From NCBI GenBank assembly GCA_038046645.1, contig JBBSVU010000024.1, positions 3,141-18,110 of the forward strand: a stretch of 14,970 nucleotides of DNA, given 5' to 3'. Under the pieces are notes generated by a model that was not told the origin of the DNA, did no database searches, and worked only from the letters and a program-made list of their open reading frames with translations. The first letter of the stretch is position 1; each line of letters begins with the position of its first letter. Made by a program: the position numbers and the translations under genes. Positions 4,976 through 11,661 of the stretch are shown in pieces. Origin of the DNA: an archaeon. Its GTDB lineage: Archaea > Iainarchaeota > Iainarchaeia > Iainarchaeales > 0-14-0-20-34-12.

Positions 4976-7900
4976 TCAAATCATCATTTTTCTTCCAGTA
5001 ATAGCATCAATTGTTACAATTCTTGTCTGCCCGTTTGGCTGCTTGAATTCTGCTTGGTAAACAGGCCAGTACACCTCATTAACCCTCTGGACAATCAGGT
5101 TTGGCCATATTTTTTTCAGCAAAGAGATAACATCCTGCTTTGTTATCTTTTCTTCAATCTTCAATAAAGCCTCACTTTCTTCTACCTCTAAATTAGACAA
5201 AGAATTCAGCAAAGGATGCAATGGATTATTTGGCAAATCAAACCTTTTGATTAATTTGTATGTTTTTATCCCATTTTTATTAAGCAAGCCAACAATATTC
5301 CTGCTTTTTAAGTCATCAAGCAACCTATTGCATTTCTGCTCAGCAAACCCTGTTTTATTCATCAATTGTTCAAGTGTCTTTTCATTCCTGCCAAGGTAAT
5401 TAAGAAGTATAATTTCATCCTCTTTTAGCTGGTAAAAGTCTTTAAGCCCTTCGGATTCAACAAATTGGCTGTTTGCGAACTGCAGGAATTCACCGCTTGC
5501 TGAGTTTATGAAAAATACGCCCTGCTTGAACTGGTGTTCTTTGGTATAATAATTGAAAATTACCTTAAACACAGGAATATTTGTCAATTCAATATTATCC
5601 AAGAATTCCTGTTTTCCTAAAATGCCTAAAAGCCCTTTCTGCCTGTATTTGTTTGCAAGCAGGTTTGCTTCTTTTTCGCCTACCTGCGGGGAGAATTGCA
5701 AAAGATCAGGCTCAGATTTTGCTTTTTTCTCAGGCTCTTCTCCTTCATCTTCAACAATATCCTCAAAATCCTCATCTTTTAATTCAGGTTCTTCCCCATC
5801 TTCAATATGTTCATCTGCCATTGGTTTCTCTTCTTTTTCTTCAATTAATGAAATAACATTGTCTTCATCATTTAGGTAAGCGCCTTTTTCAAGCAAAAGC
5901 TCAAGCACATTTTTTAATTTGCCTGCAGATGAATATTTTTCATTTAAGTCCTTCACAATCTGTTCAAGCCTTTTCACAGGCATGTTTTTCTTTGAACCAA
6001 GTTCTGAAAAAGCAGATTCAGCCGCTAGATTCTCAACATTTTTCGGTGATAATTCTTTTTTTCTTTCAACACTTTCCGCTTCCCTTCCTTCATGCTGTGA
6101 CATCCTTGGCCGTATTGACATTACAAACGACCTTGATGTTTCATCAACCCTATCCCCAACAAGTGCTTTTCCGACTGGCAGTGTTTTTATGAAACTGCTT
6201 CTTTTGAAATATGCGGGAATTATGGTAGGGGTTCTTTTGAATACTGCTTTTATGTCATCATTGAATATTAATTTGTGTGCAATTATTACATCCAATTGGC
6301 TTAGTACTTTGGAGTCGATTGCACTTGGTTGTTGTGTTGCAAATACCAATGAACAGCCAGGCCTTCTCCCCTGTTTTACATATTCAATTAAGGCTTCGCT
6401 TGCAGCTGTCTTTACATTTCCCGCAGGCATTAATGTATGCGCTTCATCAATAAACAGCCAGGTCGGAGGTATGTCTATCTCCAATAAATCTTCGCTTTTT
6501 TCACTGTCAAATCGCTCTGCTGCCTCATGCCTTGTTGAGATTTTTCTTGCCGCCAGAATTCTTCTTGCGAGTATTCCTATAACTAATGCACTTACATTAT
6601 CATCAAGGAATGATGTGTCAATAATTGTCAATTGATTTTCTTTGCTTAATTCAGAAAGTGGAGTGCCTCTTTTATCGAAAACCCCCCAGCTTTTTGCGCT
6701 GTCAAATCTTGAGGTTAAAGCCCTTATCGAATCTGATTTATATCCTCTATCTTTTGAATTTATATCTGCATCATTTTCCATGCAAAATATTATATCTTCT
6801 AAAGAATAATTGTTCCCAAATCCCTTGATTGCTTTTCCTTCTTTTGTCCTGAAACCATTTTTTACCTTATATACTGTATGGTCTAGCAATAATCCTGTAG
6901 GTGAAAACCTATCAATACCAAAGGTTAAGCACCAATCTTGCGGCGTAAGCAATGAAGGCTGCATTGCATATGTTGCATCATATGTTCCCTTAGGCGTGCT
7001 TTTTTCTACCCCTCTTGGAATAAATACTTTCAAATTTTCCAATCCCTTTGGTTTTAATCCCCATTCCTTTAAGGTCTGGAGTTCTTTTTCTTCCTTGTTA
7101 GGGAATTTCATGCTCCAAAAAACGCCAATAGGGTCAATTACAATCTGCCCAATATTTTTGTTTTTTAATGCAAGCTCTTCAGCAAGTACCCCTAAAAGGT
7201 AAGACTTTCCACTGCCGCGCGCGCCGCAAACAAATACCACATGCGGATTTAATCCATCTAGGCAAATATTCTTCTTGTAATTTGCTTCATCAACCTTCCC
7301 GATGAATAATGATGCTTCCTCACCATATTTATCATAAACAGATTTTTTTCGCCCGATAAAACTAACTGTGCCGTCCTTGTTTTGCAGCAATCTTAAATCA
7401 GGCTTTATTGCTGATTCATCCCCGACATCAGCATCTTCTGGAATATTTTCACTTAAATCCTTATCTGCTTTCTCTTCATCTCCGTCATCTTGTTTATCTG
7501 GTATTTTTTCTTTTTGTGGTTCAGGTTTCATTTCTAAAATTTTTGGAGTTTCTTTTTTCTCTTCCCTTATTTTAACATCTTCCTTTTTTTCTTGTCCAAT
7601 ATTAACATCTTTTTTATCAAGTTCTTCTGTTTTTTCATCAGCTGCTGGCAATTCTTTCAAAATTGCAATCTTTTTTTTCTTTGGCTTGTTCAGGCTGAGC
7701 AATCTTTCTTTTAACCCTGATTTTTTATTTTCCTCTTTTTCATCCTTCTTAGGCTCTTTTTCTGCATTTTTCACTTTTTCTTTTTCACTTACGTTTTTCT
7801 CTTCTTTATTATTGGTTTTTTCTTCGCTTGCAGATTCTTTTGCCATTTCTTCATTAGCCTTTTCAATATCCTTATTCTTTTTGCCTTGCATATCCTTGAT

Positions 7901-8020
7901 TTTCGCCTCTAGCCTTTTCTTTCCTTCCTCTATTTCATCATCCTTTCCGAACATTGAGTCAAATAAGTCTTCTTTCTCAATCTCTTCATTCGATTCAATA
8001 CGGCTTTCTTCTATCTCCAT
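4976..8020 (-). CDS. HerA/FtsK-superfamily (DUF87) P-loop ATPase with a charged low-complexity N-terminus and C-terminal wHTH/PepSY-like region
   Basis: Walker A GARGSGKS, IDPIG, Walker B WLFIDEAH and KQGRRPGCSLVFATQQPS (HerA GR..G...ATQ.P motif). Confidence 0.88.
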   Translation of the reverse strand: MEIEESRIESNEEIEKEDLFDSMFGKDDEIEEGKKRLEAKIKDMQGKKNKDIEKANEEMAKESASEEKTNNKEEKNVSEKEKVKNAEKEPKKDEKEENKKSGLKERLLSLNKPKKKKIAILKELPAADEKTEELDKKDVNIGQEKKEDVKIREEKKETPKILEMKPEPQKEKIPDKQDDGDEEKADKDLSENIPEDADVGDESAIKPDLRLLQNKDGTVSFIGRKKSVYDKYGEEASLFIGKVDEANYKKNICLDGLNPHVVFVCGARGSGKSYLLGVLAEELALKNKNIGQIVIDPIGVFWSMKFPNKEEKELQTLKEWGLKPKGLENLKVFIPRGVEKSTPKGTYDATYAMQPSLLTPQDWCLTFGIDRFSPTGLLLDHTVYKVKNGFRTKEGKAIKGFGNNYSLEDIIFCMENDADINSKDRGYKSDSIRALTSRFDSAKSWGVFDKRGTPLSELSKENQLTIIDTSFLDDNVSALVIGILARRILAARKISTRHEAAERFDSEKSEDLLEIDIPPTWLFIDEAHTLMPAGNVKTAASEALIEYVKQGRRPGCSLVFATQQPSAIDSKVLSQLDVIIAHKLIFNDDIKAVFKRTPTIIPAYFKRSSFIKTLPVGKALVGDRVDETSRSFVMSIRPRMSQHEGREAESVERKKELSPKNVENLAAESAFSELGSKKNMPVKRLEQIVKDLNEKYSSAGKLKNVLELLLEKGAYLNDEDNVISLIEEKEEKPMADEHIEDGEEPELKDEDFEDIVEDEGEEPEKKAKSEPDLLQFSPQVGEKEANLLANKYRQKGLLGILGKQEFLDNIELTNIPVFKVIFNYYTKEHQFKQGVFFINSASGEFLQFANSQFVESEGLKDFYQLKEDEIILLNYLGRNEKTLEQLMNKTGFAEQKCNRLLDDLKSRNIVGLLNKNGIKTYKLIKRFDLPNNPLHPLLNSLSNLEVEESEALLKIEEKITKQDVISLLKKIWPNLIVQRVNEVYWPVYQAEFKQPNGQTRIVTIDAITGRKMMI

Positions 8021-8158
8021 AATATCCCTTGCTAAAAACGCTATAACTAATATATCATTATTATTAAAAAAGCTAATTGATTTGAATATGCAGTCAAAAT
8101 GTATTAATATGAGTTACTTCTTATTATTAAAAGTATTTTTGGGATTAAAGGTGATTTA

Positions 8159-8626
8159 ATGGGAAAACTTGAGACCTTAAGGGATGTAATGGCAATCATA
8201 AGGGATTTCCTTCTGATTATTGTCCTTTTTGGGCTTATTGTTGGAATAGTCTTGTTAGGTATGTTGCTAATGGGATTAATAAATACAATACAAACACAGG
8301 GACTTTCAGGAATATTGCCACTGGTTGGCGGTATGGCTGCCGGAAGCTTAGGAAATTCCGGCTCCAGTTCTTCTTATGCCCAAGGGAAATATACTATGGA
8401 TTCTGAGACGCAGCAGATTTTTACTGAATTAAGTGATGCCATGAATAGCCAGGATGTAGTAGCACTCTCCACAAAGCTTGATGAGCTTGAAAAACATTTT
8501 ACTGGCAAGGGCATGACTGATGCTGCAGATTTGACAAAAAAAGTAAAAACTTCAATGATGACAGGGGATATAGCCGGCGCTCAGGAATATGGAACACAGC
8601 TTTTTAGCCTATTTAAACAGTCATAA
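8159..8626 (+). CDS. Hypothetical membrane-anchored protein
   Basis: N-terminal hydrophobic helix, G/S-rich linker and helical C-terminal domain. AGGTGA SD at 8149-8154. Confidence 0.8.
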   Translation: MGKLETLRDVMAIIRDFLLIIVLFGLIVGIVLLGMLLMGLINTIQTQGLSGILPLVGGMAAGSLGNSGSSSSYAQGKYTMDSETQQIFTELSDAMNSQDVVALSTKLDELEKHFTGKGMTDAADLTKKVKTSMMTGDIAGAQEYGTQLFSLFKQS

Positions 8627-8725
8627 CAATTACATTTATTTTTAACTACCCGATCTGGAAATCTGCTGCGTTTTACAATATAACGGGCAGTAAACAGTTT
8701 ACGGGAAATCCACTCTTCCAAATCC

Positions 8726-8733
8726 TTTATAAA
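8726..8733 (+). promoter_or_regulatory. Archaeal TATA box (TTTATAAA) upstream of the LAGLIDADG/tRNA unit
   Basis: Consensus TTTATAAA lies 22-29 nt upstream of ATG 8755, consistent with a leaderless transcript. Confidence 0.6.
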
Positions 8734-8754
8734 TATCAAAGCAGCGATGTTGTT

Positions 8755-9765
8755 ATGAGTACTTCATATAGGGTTATTTTAGGTAGAAAGTATCTTTTTA
8801 TGTTTTTTAAATTAATTAGAGAATCTGACAGTTTTGTTTCTTGGGCTAAACTTAGGAAGGATCTTGTTATAGGGGATACTGCTCTGAAAAGGTATAAACG
8901 TGGTGAGTTAACAATCCCATTACTTTTATTCTTAACTTTATTAGGTTATTTAAACAAGAAAGATCACAAGTTATTCACACAGAATGTGTCTTTAAGAAAC
9001 TCTAATTGGGGAGCAAAGAAAGGGGCCCATGCAGCTATTTCTAAACTAAGCAAAACCAAACTTAATGAAAATATGAGTAAAGTTAGATCTAATATCAAGC
9101 GTAAGAATATTTTAGATACTCCCTATCCTACTTTATTTGATTTAAGTGCATGCGAATTTTTTGGAGCTATGCTTGGGGACGGTTGCGTTTCTTATTTTAA
9201 AAATGAAGGACAAATTAAGTCTGAGGTGCGAATAGTAGGAAATGCAAAAAAAGACAGAATTTATCTAGAGTATATTTCTGGATTAATTAAAAAACTTTTT
9301 AATTCACAAGCAAAAGTTTATGAACGGAAAAAGGATAATAGTTTGCAATTATGTACTAGGAAAAAATCAGTTGCTGCATGGTTAAAGAATAATGGGTATC
9401 CTACAGGTAAAAAGCCTAAAGATTTTGGCATACCTGAGAACCTTATGAATTTGCCTTTAGACTATCTTAATAGAGTAATAAGAGGTCTCCTAGATACTGA
9501 TGGGCATGTTAATGCTAGGAAAGATGAGAATTATAAGTATCCTTACATTACAATTTCAAGTGTCAGCCATAATTTAAAGAATCAGTTAAAAGTAATCTTA
9601 AGACGACAAGGTTTTCCTGCATTTATCCATTCTGATGCCGTAAGTATTAGGGGTGCTAAGAATTTCCATAAATGGTTTGAGGTTGTTGGAAGTAGCAATC
9701 CAAGGATTTTAAAAAAGTATGACGAATTTTGTAATATAGGGCAAATTATTCCGGGCTCGTGGTGA
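8755..9765 (+). CDS. Two-motif LAGLIDADG homing endonuclease-like protein with an N-terminal HTH-like region
   Basis: Motifs EFFGAMLGDG and VIRGLLDTDG. N-terminal SWAKLRKDLVIGDTALKRYKRGELTIP is HTH-like. The TGA stop lies inside the tRNA. Confidence 0.88.
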   Translation: MSTSYRVILGRKYLFMFFKLIRESDSFVSWAKLRKDLVIGDTALKRYKRGELTIPLLLFLTLLGYLNKKDHKLFTQNVSLRNSNWGAKKGAHAAISKLSKTKLNENMSKVRSNIKRKNILDTPYPTLFDLSACEFFGAMLGDGCVSYFKNEGQIKSEVRIVGNAKKDRIYLEYISGLIKKLFNSQAKVYERKKDNSLQLCTRKKSVAAWLKNNGYPTGKKPKDFGIPENLMNLPLDYLNRVIRGLLDTDGHVNARKDENYKYPYITISSVSHNLKNQLKVILRRQGFPAFIHSDAVSIRGAKNFHKWFEVVGSSNPRILKKYDEFCNIGQIIPGSW

Positions 9766-9824
9766 AATGGCATCACGCAACCTTCGCAAGGTTGAGGCTG
9801 CGGGTTCGACTCCCGCCGAGTCCA
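9753..9824 (+). tRNA. tRNA-Ala (anticodon CGC), intronless, CCA not encoded
   Basis: Acceptor stem GGGCTCG/CGAGTCC with the G3:U70 Ala determinant; D stem GTGA/TCAC; anticodon arm CAACC-TTCGCAA-GGTTG; T arm GCGGG-TTCGACT-CCCGC; discriminator A73. Confidence 0.97.
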
Positions 9825-9831
9825 TTCCGCC

Positions 9832-9967
9832 TTCTCTTTCTTTTTCTAAAAGAAAGAGAATGTAGGTTGCCAAGAGAAAGAAAATATGGGTGTTTCAAAA
9901 AAGAAAGAGAAAAGCTAGGCGCCCCAAAAGAGAAAGAAACTTTGGTGCACCAAAAGAGAAAGAAAAG
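9832..9967. repeat. Homopyrimidine/homopurine hairpin followed by mirror-repeated purine tracts (potential intrastrand triplex or terminator element)
   Basis: 13-bp perfect stem 9832-9844/9848-9860; mirror pairs 9848-9860/9872-9884 and 9900-9913/9926-9939; another tract copy at 9952-9965; palindrome TTTGGTGCACCAAA at 9941-9954. Confidence 0.85.
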
Positions 9968-10000
9968 TTTAAGTATTGCCTAAAGCAAATAAAATTTGTT

Positions 10001-10177
10001 TTACAGCATCAGGAAAATCCATTCGATTAAGAAAAACAAAAACATAATGATAAAGCCTGTGCTTGAAAAGAACATATCTCCGAAAATGTTTACGTTTTGG
10101 GTAAGCAGCAATCCGAATACTAAATAAAAGGCAATAGTTACATTGATTCCCATCACAATTCTTTTGAAGGTTATCAT
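10001..10177 (-). CDS. Small membrane protein (58 aa, two predicted TM helices); absent from the ORF track
   Basis: Translated by hand: MITFKRIVMGINVTIAFYLVFGLLLTQNVNIFGDMFFSSTGFIIMFLFFLIEWIFLML*. Its ATG overlaps the upstream gene's TGA (ATGA). Confidence 0.7.
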   Translation of the reverse strand: MITFKRIVMGINVTIAFYLVFGLLLTQNVNIFGDMFFSSTGFIIMFLFFLIEWIFLML

Positions 10178-10539
10178 AATCCCATCATAAAAAAGTTATA
10201 ATATATCCAAACGCAATACGAGCTAATTTCATTTACCCAGATTAATCTGCTGCTTAATTTTGGGTCATCCTCAGCAAATGCCAAAACCGCAATTTTTACC
10301 ATGTAATGTATTGATAAAAAACCACCGACAAAGGTTGCCCATTGGAAGATATTCCCAACATCATTTAAGATCCAAAGCATTAGTATTAAGGCTATTGTCC
10401 CGGCTATCAATTTTTGGCCGTTTGCAAATACGAAGATTATGGCTATGAAAATGAATAAGAATTGCAGGTTATTTATGATTAAGCCAAAAATCCAGGCAAT
10501 ATCCAATGCCATCAAATGATACAAAAATTCAATTAACAT
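10174..10539 (-). CDS. Hypothetical integral membrane protein (about 121 aa)
   Basis: 3-4 hydrophobic segments. ATG 10539 is preferred over the track's 10611 start, which runs through the AT-rich divergent promoter region. Confidence 0.75.
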   Translation of the reverse strand: MLIEFLYHLMALDIAWIFGLIINNLQFLFIFIAIIFVFANGQKLIAGTIALILMLWILNDVGNIFQWATFVGGFLSIHYMVKIAVLAFAEDDPKLSSRLIWVNEISSYCVWIYYNFFMMGL

Positions 10540-10613
10540 AAGCGGTCTATATAATACTCTGTTCTTTCTAATATAAATAAAAAACTTGTAGATTTTACTA
10601 AAAAATAACAAAA

Positions 10614-10621
10614 TATATAAA
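10614..10621 (+). promoter_or_regulatory. Putative TATA box (TATATAAA) for the Lrp/AsnC gene
   Basis: Lies 24-31 nt upstream of ATG 10645. The palindrome TAATATATTA follows at 10630-10639. Confidence 0.45.
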
Positions 10622-10644
10622 CTTTTTGTAATATATTATTAAAT

Positions 10645-11661
10645 ATGGCTAAATCGCTTGATTCAGGCATAGTTGAGCTCGATTCCATAGATAGTAAGAT
10701 TCTGCATCAGCTTGACTTAAATGCAAGGATGCCTATTTCTCTAATCGCAAAAAGGACAAGCCTTTCAAGGATGGTTGTTGAATATAGAATAAACAAAATG
10801 CTTGAGTTAGGGGTCATAAGAGCCTTTGCCACACAGATAGATCCTGCAAAATTCGGGTTGTCAAGCTGGAAAGTCTATGTAAGGTTGCACAATACAACTG
10901 CAGAACTCGAGAACCAGATTATGGATTTTCTGGCTGCCAATCCCCAAGTATGGTGGGTTGTAAAATGTTACGGCCAATACAATCTGCTTTATTCAGTTGT
11001 AGGGGAAAGCTATTATGAATTTTACAAATCATTAATCGATTTTCACAACCGATTTGGTGAATATATACTTGAAGAAAATATAAACAACCATCTTGAGCCA
11101 GAATTTTCAAGCAGAGGTTATTTAAGCGATGAAAATCCAGTGATGGTCTGCAAGCCTTTTTTGGTAAAGCCTGAAAAATCAGATAGTGATTCTATTGACT
11201 TCAAGATATTAAAGGTTATTTCAGTAAATGCAAGGCTTTCTGCTGTTGAAATAGCCAAGAAAACAGGGTTAAGCCCAAGAGTAGTTGATTACCGGATGAA
11301 GGAATTGATAAAAAAGAAAGTTATTGTTTATTTTAGATTAGTCCTTGATGTGAATAAAATTGGAAGAGATTATTATAAAGGGCTTGTCTATTTAAAAAAT
11401 ACTAATTCTAAGAACATGGAAAGGCTTATTGGCCATCTCAAATTAAATAAGGAAATAACCCAATGGGGAAAAACAGTTGGTCCATGGCAGCTTGAGATAG
11501 AATCAGAGTCAAGGAATTTTAAGGAATATAACCTAACAATTGAGGCTTTGTTAAATAAATTTTCAGATTTAATAGTTAGGATAGATACTATTCTGATGTA
11601 TAAGGAATATAACCCAGAATACAACTTCCTAGCTTACTTGGAAAAAACAAGCCAACAATAA
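10645..11661 (+). CDS. Lrp/AsnC family transcriptional regulator with tandem duplicated HTH-RAM units
   Basis: Two repeats: LDSIDSKILHQLDLNARMPISLIAKRTSLSRMVVEYRINKMLELGVI and DSIDFKILKVISVNARLSAVEIAKKTGLSPRVVDYRMKELIKKKVI. Confidence 0.93.
   Translation: MAKSLDSGIVELDSIDSKILHQLDLNARMPISLIAKRTSLSRMVVEYRINKMLELGVIRAFATQIDPAKFGLSSWKVYVRLHNTTAELENQIMDFLAANPQVWWVVKCYGQYNLLYSVVGESYYEFYKSLIDFHNRFGEYILEENINNHLEPEFSSRGYLSDENPVMVCKPFLVKPEKSDSDSIDFKILKVISVNARLSAVEIAKKTGLSPRVVDYRMKELIKKKVIVYFRLVLDVNKIGRDYYKGLVYLKNTNSKNMERLIGHLKLNKEITQWGKTVGPWQLEIESESRNFKEYNLTIEALLNKFSDLIVRIDTILMYKEYNPEYNFLAYLEKTSQQ

Follow-up and report, generated by a model that had tools for sequence, protein, structure and literature searches.

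A free-standing LAGLIDADG nuclease gene that ends inside tRNA-Ala(CGC) in an archaeon: a probable homing-endonuclease cassette

In G000, the genome of a tiny archaeon from groundwater, we analysed a stretch of 14,970 nucleotides (nt), hereafter the window, in which a free-standing gene for a LAGLIDADG nuclease, P0001, ends inside the adjoining gene for the alanine transfer RNA (tRNA) with anticodon CGC. On sequence comparison this gene is probably a free-standing homing-endonuclease cassette and probably active; we put the probability that its open reading frame (ORF) is a selfish element docked on the 5' end of tRNA-Ala(CGC) at about 0.72. The mobile-element reading is well supported: relatives of the protein lie beside tRNA genes, protein lineages follow the identity of the tRNA, and the locus is occupied in one genome, gene-free in others and held by a pseudogene elsewhere. 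The host genome comprises 1.17 Mb in 25 contigs and is 89% complete; the window lies on contig C24, at about 34% G+C.

The junction of the nuclease gene and the tRNA gene

The gene for P0001 occupies positions 8755-9765 of the forward strand and encodes 336 amino acids (ORF translation, Pfam). Its last 13 nt, 9753-9765 on the forward strand, overlap the tRNA gene and place the codons (P)GSW and TGA on tRNA positions 1-13; the TGA itself (9763-9765) forms tRNA positions 11-13, in the 5' strand of the D stem. The tRNA-Ala(CGC) gene (9753-9824, forward strand; ARAGORN; Rfam RF00005, 65.7 bits, model positions 1-71) is complete and intron-less, forms a cloverleaf with the alanine G3.U70 pair and the D stem GTGA/TCAC, and is the sole CGC isoacceptor detected in the 89% complete genome. 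ARAGORN, Rfam and the cloverleaf agree on the end of the ORF inside the tRNA, where an earlier reading of the same DNA (the original prediction) had placed it. Because an independent metagenome contig (run X9, record 21) matches 9474-10036 of the window without a difference, the junction is real and not an artefact of assembly.

The last 14 nt before the tRNA, GGGCAAATTATTCC (9739-9752, forward strand), encode G-Q-I-I-P, which is conserved in the ortholog alignment. P0001 ends in ...IGQIIPGSW, and the orthologs have the ends ...TGRILPGP, ...TGKILPGPLV, ...TDKIYPGL and ...TGKLLPKRALSSAR, each directly before its stop. Since the motif (I/T)G(Q/R/K)(I/L)(I/L)P is kept across the orthologs, the tail is part of the protein and not merely a borrowed host leader. 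The original prediction of a free-standing nuclease at the 5' flank of the tRNA, with a stop supplied by the tRNA, is upheld. The proline codon is split as CC|G in G000, L043, L062 and L063, its G being tRNA position +1; L044, unlike the other three orthologs, has a 5-nt spacer between the gene and its tRNA-Ala(CGC). A stop codon before the tRNA is found in none of these five sequences. Because the cassette ends at tRNA +1, P0001 'borrows' its stop from the tRNA. In the nuclease frame the usual tRNA sequence U8-A9-G10 reads TAG; the window tRNA has G9, and the frame continues to the TGA. Judged from the alignment, the absence of an own stop is an old property common to the Ala-CGC clade. Among co-directional relatives (n=23), many likewise stop inside the tRNA, with an overlap of 15 nt in L004, L007, L020, L024, L058 and L059, and in L026 and L029 the frame reads right through the tRNA. 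Such ORFs overlap tRNAs by design, and annotation programs are likely to shorten or discard either the ORF or the tRNA.

Pfam matched P0001 to LAGLIDADG_3 (3.3e-11, residues 238-297) and LAGLIDADG_2 (6.4e-6, residues 136-220). Alignment located the first LAGLIDADG motif, FGAMLGDG, at 9163-9183 (forward strand), with the catalytic D142 encoded at 9178-9180, and the second, RGLLDTDG, at 9481-9504 (forward strand), with D249 encoded at 9499-9501. Two motifs in one chain, each ending with an acidic residue, mark the monomeric double-motif type. Both acidic residues are retained, as had been noticed before: D142 and D249 are invariant in all 24 aligned relatives, together with G137, G141, G143, K204, G244, D247 and T248. 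The AlphaFold2 model (mean pLDDT, the predicted local distance difference test, 81.6; core 86-96) comprises a confidently predicted N-terminal helical, helix-turn-helix (HTH)-like domain at about residues 1-85, a disordered linker (88-123), a double LAGLIDADG alpha-beta core (about 125-328) and a disordered tail (330-336, pLDDT below 50). Foldseek returned as best matches I-Tsp061I (TMt 0.70), I-DmoI (TMt 0.72-0.75) and intein endonucleases, and also I-AniI, the bI3 maturase and WhiA; the probability was 1.00 for I-Tsp061I, I-DmoI, PI-PfuI and I-AniI. P0001 is thus predicted to have the pseudo-dimeric LAGLIDADG fold. For its N-terminal domain no Pfam or NCBIfam family matched, and among the relatives Pfam found HTH_3 only in L046, a member of the Gly/Gln clade.

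A second type of protein, of about 470-530 amino acids, shares just this N-terminal domain (residues ~6-115) with the P0001 family. It is represented by L061 (G038:C22, 143-1573, minus strand), which sits 35 nt upstream of tRNA-Thr(GGT), and occurs also on G113:C182, G173:C89 and G133:C23. The C-terminal part of these proteins is different and non-LAGLIDADG, with a weak match to DUF7487 alone. The N-terminal domain may be a module that finds tRNA genes, joined in the L061 type to another effector.

LAGLIDADG genes usually sit in introns or inteins. The gene described here lies outside both, with its own TATA box and ATG, no surrounding host ORF and an uninterrupted tRNA. One could still take it for the relic of a tRNA-intron endonuclease, of a bulge-helix-bulge (BHB) or group I intron, that was freed by repair or duplication of the tRNA and is no longer mobile; among solved structures the closest are those of the archaeal intron enzymes I-Tsp061I and I-DmoI, introns interrupt many of the tRNA genes in these genomes, and ARAGORN calls L046 (G027:C10, 844-2122) only as one tRNA-Gln, joining its outer pieces across a 1186-nt 'intron' that holds the ORF. 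We consider this origin improbable, since the window tRNA is continuous over model positions 1-71 without insertion, with no exon halves or BHB arrangement, and the Rfam search of the window returned no group I intron and no family besides tRNA. Moreover, L046 consists of a 37-nt tRNA 5' fragment, the LAGLIDADG gene with HTH_3 and then the same tRNA 5' end once more. Its downstream part therefore begins with a duplication, and the locus is not made of two exons. This second copy heads a 128-nt tRNA-like gene that scores below the Rfam gathering score. The passages of PMC6125680 that treat archaeal group I introns place 39 of the 39 reported in rRNA genes, which also speaks against a tRNA-intron origin.

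Adjacency to tRNA genes and tRNA identity across the family

In G000 six sequences match P0001, one of them an intein in aRF1 and the other five free-standing, and all five free-standing paralogs end at a tRNA gene. Besides P0001 itself (8755-9765 of the window, tRNA-Ala-CGC, 13-nt overlap) these are C1:70941-72143, which overlaps tRNA-Arg-GCG by 15-16 nt, C17:25690-26604, which leaves a 19-nt gap to tRNA-Gly-CCC, and C1:76448-77458 and C6:55855-56658, which run antisense into the 3' ends of tRNA-Thr-GGT and tRNA-Gly-TCC, respectively. As a control, the distance from the 3' end of a gene to a tRNA is at most 50 nt for 19 of 874 crude genes of G000, a set that includes the five LAGLIDADG paralogs. 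With 5/5 paralogs set against 14/869 other genes, the adjacency is beyond chance.

The survey of relatives covered 69 free-standing open frames; inteins were left out, as were L061, which lacks a LAGLIDADG part, and L064, whose DNA is that of L043. An Rfam tRNA lies at the 3' end of the ORF in 47 of them (23 co-directional, 24 convergent) and solely at the 5' side in 10. The remaining 12 have no Rfam tRNA; four of these have intron-bearing tRNAs called by ARAGORN alone, one has a tRNA inside the stop-to-stop frame, one runs off the contig and one is truncated. The expectation that homologs abut or overlap tRNAs systematically is thereby borne out, by the five paralogs as by the relatives. The more specific picture of a nuclease at the 5' end of the tRNA holds for P0001 and its co-directional kin and fails for the rest: roughly one relative in two is antisense to its tRNA and enters it from the 3' end, and the members of one clade are located behind the tRNA. 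On this sequence evidence P0001 belongs to a large free-standing LAGLIDADG family in a DPANN-type phylum. Matches to the family at 1e-10 were found in 99 of 215 genomes of the phylum, with a patchy distribution across families and 0 to 5 copies per genome, beside different tRNAs; a single-protein scan of genome contigs with P0001 gave 2 loci.

The region 70.9-82.5 kb of contig C1 of G000 is rich in tRNAs (Arg, Leu, Pro, His, Thr, Ala, Glu and Thr within 12 kb) and holds two of the five LAGLIDADG paralogs. It also contains an ORF of 264 amino acids without Pfam match (C1 78979-79773), whose end runs antisense into an intron-bearing tRNA-Ala(GGC) called by ARAGORN.

Protein lineages are tied to tRNA identity. 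On a tree of 45 family proteins the tRNA label changes 29 times, compared with a mean of 37.7 after shuffling, and 0 of 200 shuffles gave a value as low. The clades are Ala-CGC, Arg-TCG/TCT, Arg-GCG, a Thr clade of eight (GGT, TGT, CGT; support 96) and a Gly clade (CCC, TCC, GCC; support 97). All four distinct orthologs of P0001 lie directly upstream of tRNA-Ala(CGC); their identity to P0001 is 44% (tblastn) or 49% (322 tree columns) for L043, 33% for L044, 49% for L062 and 48% for L063. The clades go by the amino acid of the tRNA and extend over its isoacceptors, in genomes with unrelated flanks; this is the strongest argument at hand that the enzyme would recognise the sequence of the tRNA gene itself. 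The eight tRNA-Ala genes compared share 66-84% pairwise identity except for the G000/G001 pair (98%), and the short D-loop type occurs also in a tRNA-Ala(GGC) gene without an adjacent nuclease gene.

Alleles of the locus, cassette ends and alternative explanations

Comparison of the tRNA-Ala(CGC) locus between genomes, as called for by the original prediction, revealed both occupied and gene-free alleles. In G001, a genome of the same genus as the occupied G000, the nuclease gene is absent; just 96 nt separate the tRNA from the ortholog of the upstream neighbour gene (65% amino-acid identity), and tRNA-Ala(CGC) is identical to the window tRNA at 71 of 72 positions. Homology resumes at 9739, and the 14 nt before the tRNA, identical at 14/14, are all that remains of the nuclease gene. 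Because these retained nucleotides encode the conserved G-Q-I-I-P, we read the G001 allele as a secondary loss with a 14-nt deletion footprint. G002, of the same family, has an unrelated tRNA leader and no nuclease gene and is read as an allele without trace of it, and at seven further tRNA-Ala(CGC) loci in other genomes no family match was found at that place. In L043 the gene is present as a pseudogene, with 3 in-frame stops and DTDD replacing DTDG, and one or two in-frame stops are found in several further members of the family. One locus is therefore polymorphic for presence and absence: occupied in G000, reduced to a footprint in G001, gene-free in G002 and a pseudogene in L043. The homing-endonuclease cycle of gain, decay and loss is established from fungal omega-type elements, and the coexistence of intact, decayed and deleted copies is as this life cycle predicts. 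Among members with a single in-frame stop, the stop is TAG in eight (G021, G006, G127, G089, G105, G108 and others) and TGA in one (G173); the lone TAG stops could mean decay, or TAG could be read through in some of these archaea.

These alleles also bear on the idea that the gene is cargo of a larger integrative element whose attachment site is the tRNA gene. Integration at tRNA genes is a classic pattern, and some family members have short copies of tRNA ends next to them. Nevertheless, the difference from the G001 allele amounts to one gene of about 1 kb, the same neighbours stand on both sides in G000, G001 and G002, no integrase or recombinase family is among the profile matches of the window ORFs, and integrases usually target the tRNA 3' end, whereas the cassette sits at the 5' end. 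An integrase-type island is largely ruled out by the synteny of the three genomes, and we regard integrative cargo as extremely improbable.

On its left side the cassette reaches at least to a conserved upstream element, ACGGGAAATCCACTCTTCCAAATCCTTTATAAATATCAAA (8701-8740, forward strand; L063 alignment), which holds the TATA box; none of 1000 shuffles reached the local-alignment score of this element with the 5' region of ortholog L063. Further upstream, L043 and window positions 8656-8666 have TGGAAATCTGC in common (26/1000 shuffles reach the score). A tRNA-like likeness of the left flank at 8690-8703 to the G001 spacer was at chance level, and we do not count it as tRNA debris.

Orphan pieces of tRNA genes occur at several loci, the 5' fragments ending at tRNA position 15-16. 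A tRNA-Ala-like 16-mer, GGGCTGATAG(A/C)TCAGT, lies upstream in G001 and L043 and is identical at 15/16 positions to the 5' end of the G000 tRNA-Ala(GGC). In G017, where the nuclease gene is missing at this locus, tRNA-Ala(CGC) is preceded by two tRNA 5' fragments that each end at position 15 and may be traces of a cassette once gained and then lost. On G017:C1 (L038/L085) these fragments read GGGCCGATAGCTTAG and CCGATAGCTCAG, each then followed by CGCCG, 75-115 nt upstream of the tRNA. T-arm/acceptor fragments lie just 3' of the tRNA in L043 and L062, and L052 has an 11-nt orphan copy of the end of its adjoining tRNA. In L043 (2655-2742) an exact repeat of the last 17 nt of tRNA-Ala(CGC), GATTCCCTCCGGGTCCA, follows 53 nt downstream, at the very end of the contig, either as a real duplicated tRNA 3' end or as an assembly break at a repeat. 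Together with the second tRNA 5' copy in L046, such pieces suggest, if thinly, that cassettes insert within tRNA genes, which they make whole again by duplicating one end. The scan of 33 loci given below does not support far-side repeats of tRNA ends as a general feature of the family.

The minus strand beside the nuclease locus encodes a HerA/DUF87-type ATPase of 1014 amino acids (4976-8020), with 87% identity in G001 and 46-51% in other families; in G001, G002 and L043/L064 it likewise adjoins the tRNA-Ala(CGC) locus. The DNA directly 3' of the tRNA contains a perfect hairpin of 13 bp (TTCTCTTTCTTTT / AAAAGAAAGAGAA, 9832-9860); beyond it come three direct repeats of 26 nt that end in AAAGAGAAAG (9882-9962, within the region 9825-9965). 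G001 has a similar purine/pyrimidine hairpin array 3' of its tRNA-Ala(CGC), and the upstream regions of many other G000 tRNAs end in AGAAAAGAAAA-type hairpins of the same kind as that at 9832-9860.

Several results weigh against a mobile cassette. A significant far-side copy of the adjoining tRNA end (p <= 0.005) was found in just 4 of 33 loci, and in three of these (L022, L027, L048) it is a neighbouring full tRNA, which leaves L052 with the lone orphan copy. A self-like 5' fragment lies upstream in 1 of 8 scanned gene-free tRNA-Ala(CGC) loci (G017), a scan that missed the fragment of G001, which differs from its own tRNA. The left flank of the window shows no significant similarity to the G001 spacer (571/1000 shuffles reach the score). 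Because the genomes under comparison are related to one another and were selected for likeness to P0001, the counts of tRNA adjacency overstate independence. Pairwise identities of the eight tRNA-Ala genes gave no clear sign that the tRNA travels with the gene, and no joint skipping the nuclease gene was found over 7800-10700 in four metagenome runs, which are of low coverage and fragmentary. Furthermore, ortholog identity (44-49%) is about that of the neighbouring HerA-like ATPase (46-49%, same genomes compared), whose gene again adjoins the cassette in L043/L064; long vertical residence with losses would fit this divergence as well as repeated homing. Most family copies are intact with invariant catalytic residues, which a host function would also fit.

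The main alternative to a homing-endonuclease cassette is thus a domesticated LAGLIDADG host factor, a WhiA-like regulator or maturase-like helper that is vertically inherited and acts on the adjacent tRNA gene or its transcript; the overlap would then be an operon-like coupling and not parasitism. Intact copies with invariant catalytic and core residues, a divergence equal to that of a housekeeping neighbour, a locus partly syntenic between families, fold matches to WhiA and to the bI3 and I-AniI maturases, and persistence of the family in genomes of only about 1 Mb all agree with such a role. We nevertheless judge it unlikely, because the genomes of the same genus and family have a working tRNA but no such gene at this locus, the family includes pseudogenes and members with in-frame stops, and the copies, 0 to 5 per genome, lie beside different tRNAs. 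Both catalytic aspartates are kept, which WhiA-type factors are not known to do, and the orientation to the tRNA varies (co-directional, convergent, behind the tRNA), which speaks against a common logic of transcription.

Expression of the overlapping pair and relation to known systems

For the selfish homing-endonuclease cassette we propose the following course. A unit of about 1.05 kb, at least 8701-9752, would combine its own promoter with a double-motif LAGLIDADG nuclease bearing an N-terminal HTH-like domain. As the match between clades and tRNAs implies, the nuclease would recognise and cut the cognate tRNA gene, or the junction, in cassette-free genomes; repair from the occupied allele would copy the cassette beside a working tRNA, and the nuclease gene would afterwards decay and then be deleted. 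With the cassette ending exactly at tRNA +1, translation would stop at the first in-frame stop of the tRNA, here UGA at 11-13. The cassette would have displaced the former upstream region of the tRNA, which would most likely be driven by a box in the last ~15 codons of the nuclease, by read-through from the nuclease promoter, or by both.

The TATA box that the original prediction saw just upstream of the ATG is present as TTTATAAATA (8726-8735, forward strand) and is conserved in L063; position 8726, where that prediction began the feature, is thus the TATA box, and the ORF starts at 8755. The box lies ~25 nt before the ATG, and by the archaeal TATA-to-start spacing rule the nuclease mRNA is therefore expected to be leaderless or nearly so. 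Since the cassette abuts tRNA +1, the former upstream region of the tRNA is now about 1 kb away. A candidate tRNA promoter is the TATA-like box TTTTAAAAAAG (9707-9717, forward strand), which falls in the codons I-L-K-K at -46..-36 from tRNA +1. The gene-free allele of G001 has TTTTTATG at -44..-37 from the tRNA, other G000 tRNAs have TTTTAAA-type boxes at about -37..-28, and in orthologs of P0001 A/T-rich boxes are found at about -40..-29. A box of the TTTTAAA type is encoded in the last codons of the paralog before tRNA-Gly(CCC), GATTTTTTTAAAACATAG, which read D-F-F-K-T-stop. For the region -50..-22 of the 23 co-directional pairs, the longest A/T run has a mean of 7.8, compared with 6.6 inside ORFs (P ~0.016), a modest signal in DNA rich in A+T. 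An internal tRNA promoter at 9707-9717 is plausible on this weak support, and read-through from the nuclease promoter is equally possible as a driver of the tRNA.

An mRNA that can be translated to its stop must hold tRNA positions 1-13 and, as follows from this, almost certainly the whole tRNA with its RNase P site. RNase P cleaves pre-tRNA at position +1. In the hypothesis of the original prediction, which is logically sound, maturation of the tRNA 5' end would remove the stop codon from a cotranscribed message, leave it non-stop and so limit the expression of the nuclease. A wider proposal joins two ideas, namely that the overlap is functional through throttling by RNase P and that the cassettes, by landing in tRNA genes and rebuilding them, drive a remodelling of these genes in DPANN archaea that has gone unrecognised; we offer it tentatively and hold it to be rather doubtful. 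If true, RNase P would throttle the nuclease in proportion to tRNA processing, the cassette would pay its way by supplying a tRNA promoter in its last codons, and remodelling would yield orphan fragments, replaced alleles and perhaps split or intron-bearing tRNA genes. The tRNA-bound nuclease family itself, if confirmed, would provide a natural test case in which RNase P processing and translation compete for one transcript, a mechanism for the turnover and fragmentation of tRNA genes in small-genome archaea, and a set of natural meganucleases with predictable targets, the tRNA genes.

Homing endonucleases are known from introns, inteins and free-standing phage genes. The archaeal rRNA-intron enzymes I-DmoI and I-Tsp061I resemble P0001 in having a single chain with two motifs, both catalytic acids and the same fold, in their archaeal host and in the presumed role of cutting a conserved gene for a stable RNA. 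P0001 differs from them in lying outside an intron, beside a tRNA gene and not inside an rRNA gene, in an extra N-terminal part of ~125 residues with its HTH-like domain, and in an ORF that ends inside the tRNA. WhiA, a bacterial transcription factor derived from a LAGLIDADG protein, likewise combines the LAGLIDADG scaffold with an HTH domain. It is not known to keep the catalytic acids and has its HTH domain at the C-terminus, whereas P0001 has two invariant aspartates and bears the extra domain at its N-terminus. Among mobile elements, integrase-type islands lie at tRNA 3' ends, and the retroelements Ty3 and Dictyostelium TRE at Pol III genes. They share with the P0001 cassette the use of tRNA genes as conserved, safe landing sites; the cassette is set apart by being a single nuclease gene with neither integrase nor reverse transcriptase, and by its presumed mechanism, the repair of a double-strand break.

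A literature search, with most subscription journals outside its reach and hence no proof of absence, returned no report of a tRNA-flanking LAGLIDADG family, and the tRNA-specific family is apparently undescribed. New to the literature searched is a cellular, lineage-rich LAGLIDADG family whose branches are each tied to one tRNA gene and whose frames enter the tRNA. The nearest analogue in print is SegB of phage T4, a free-standing GIY-YIG homing endonuclease encoded in the T4 tRNA gene cluster (PMC2330249). SegB and other Seg/Mob enzymes of 'intronless homing' have in common with P0001 a free-standing endonuclease gene among or beside tRNA genes and a presumed spread by cutting the gene-free allele and co-converting flanking DNA. 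P0001 differs from SegB in its LAGLIDADG instead of GIY-YIG fold and in its place on a cellular archaeal chromosome and not in a phage, and the P0001 family differs in that whole lineages are tied to one tRNA identity and that the reading frame overlaps the tRNA.

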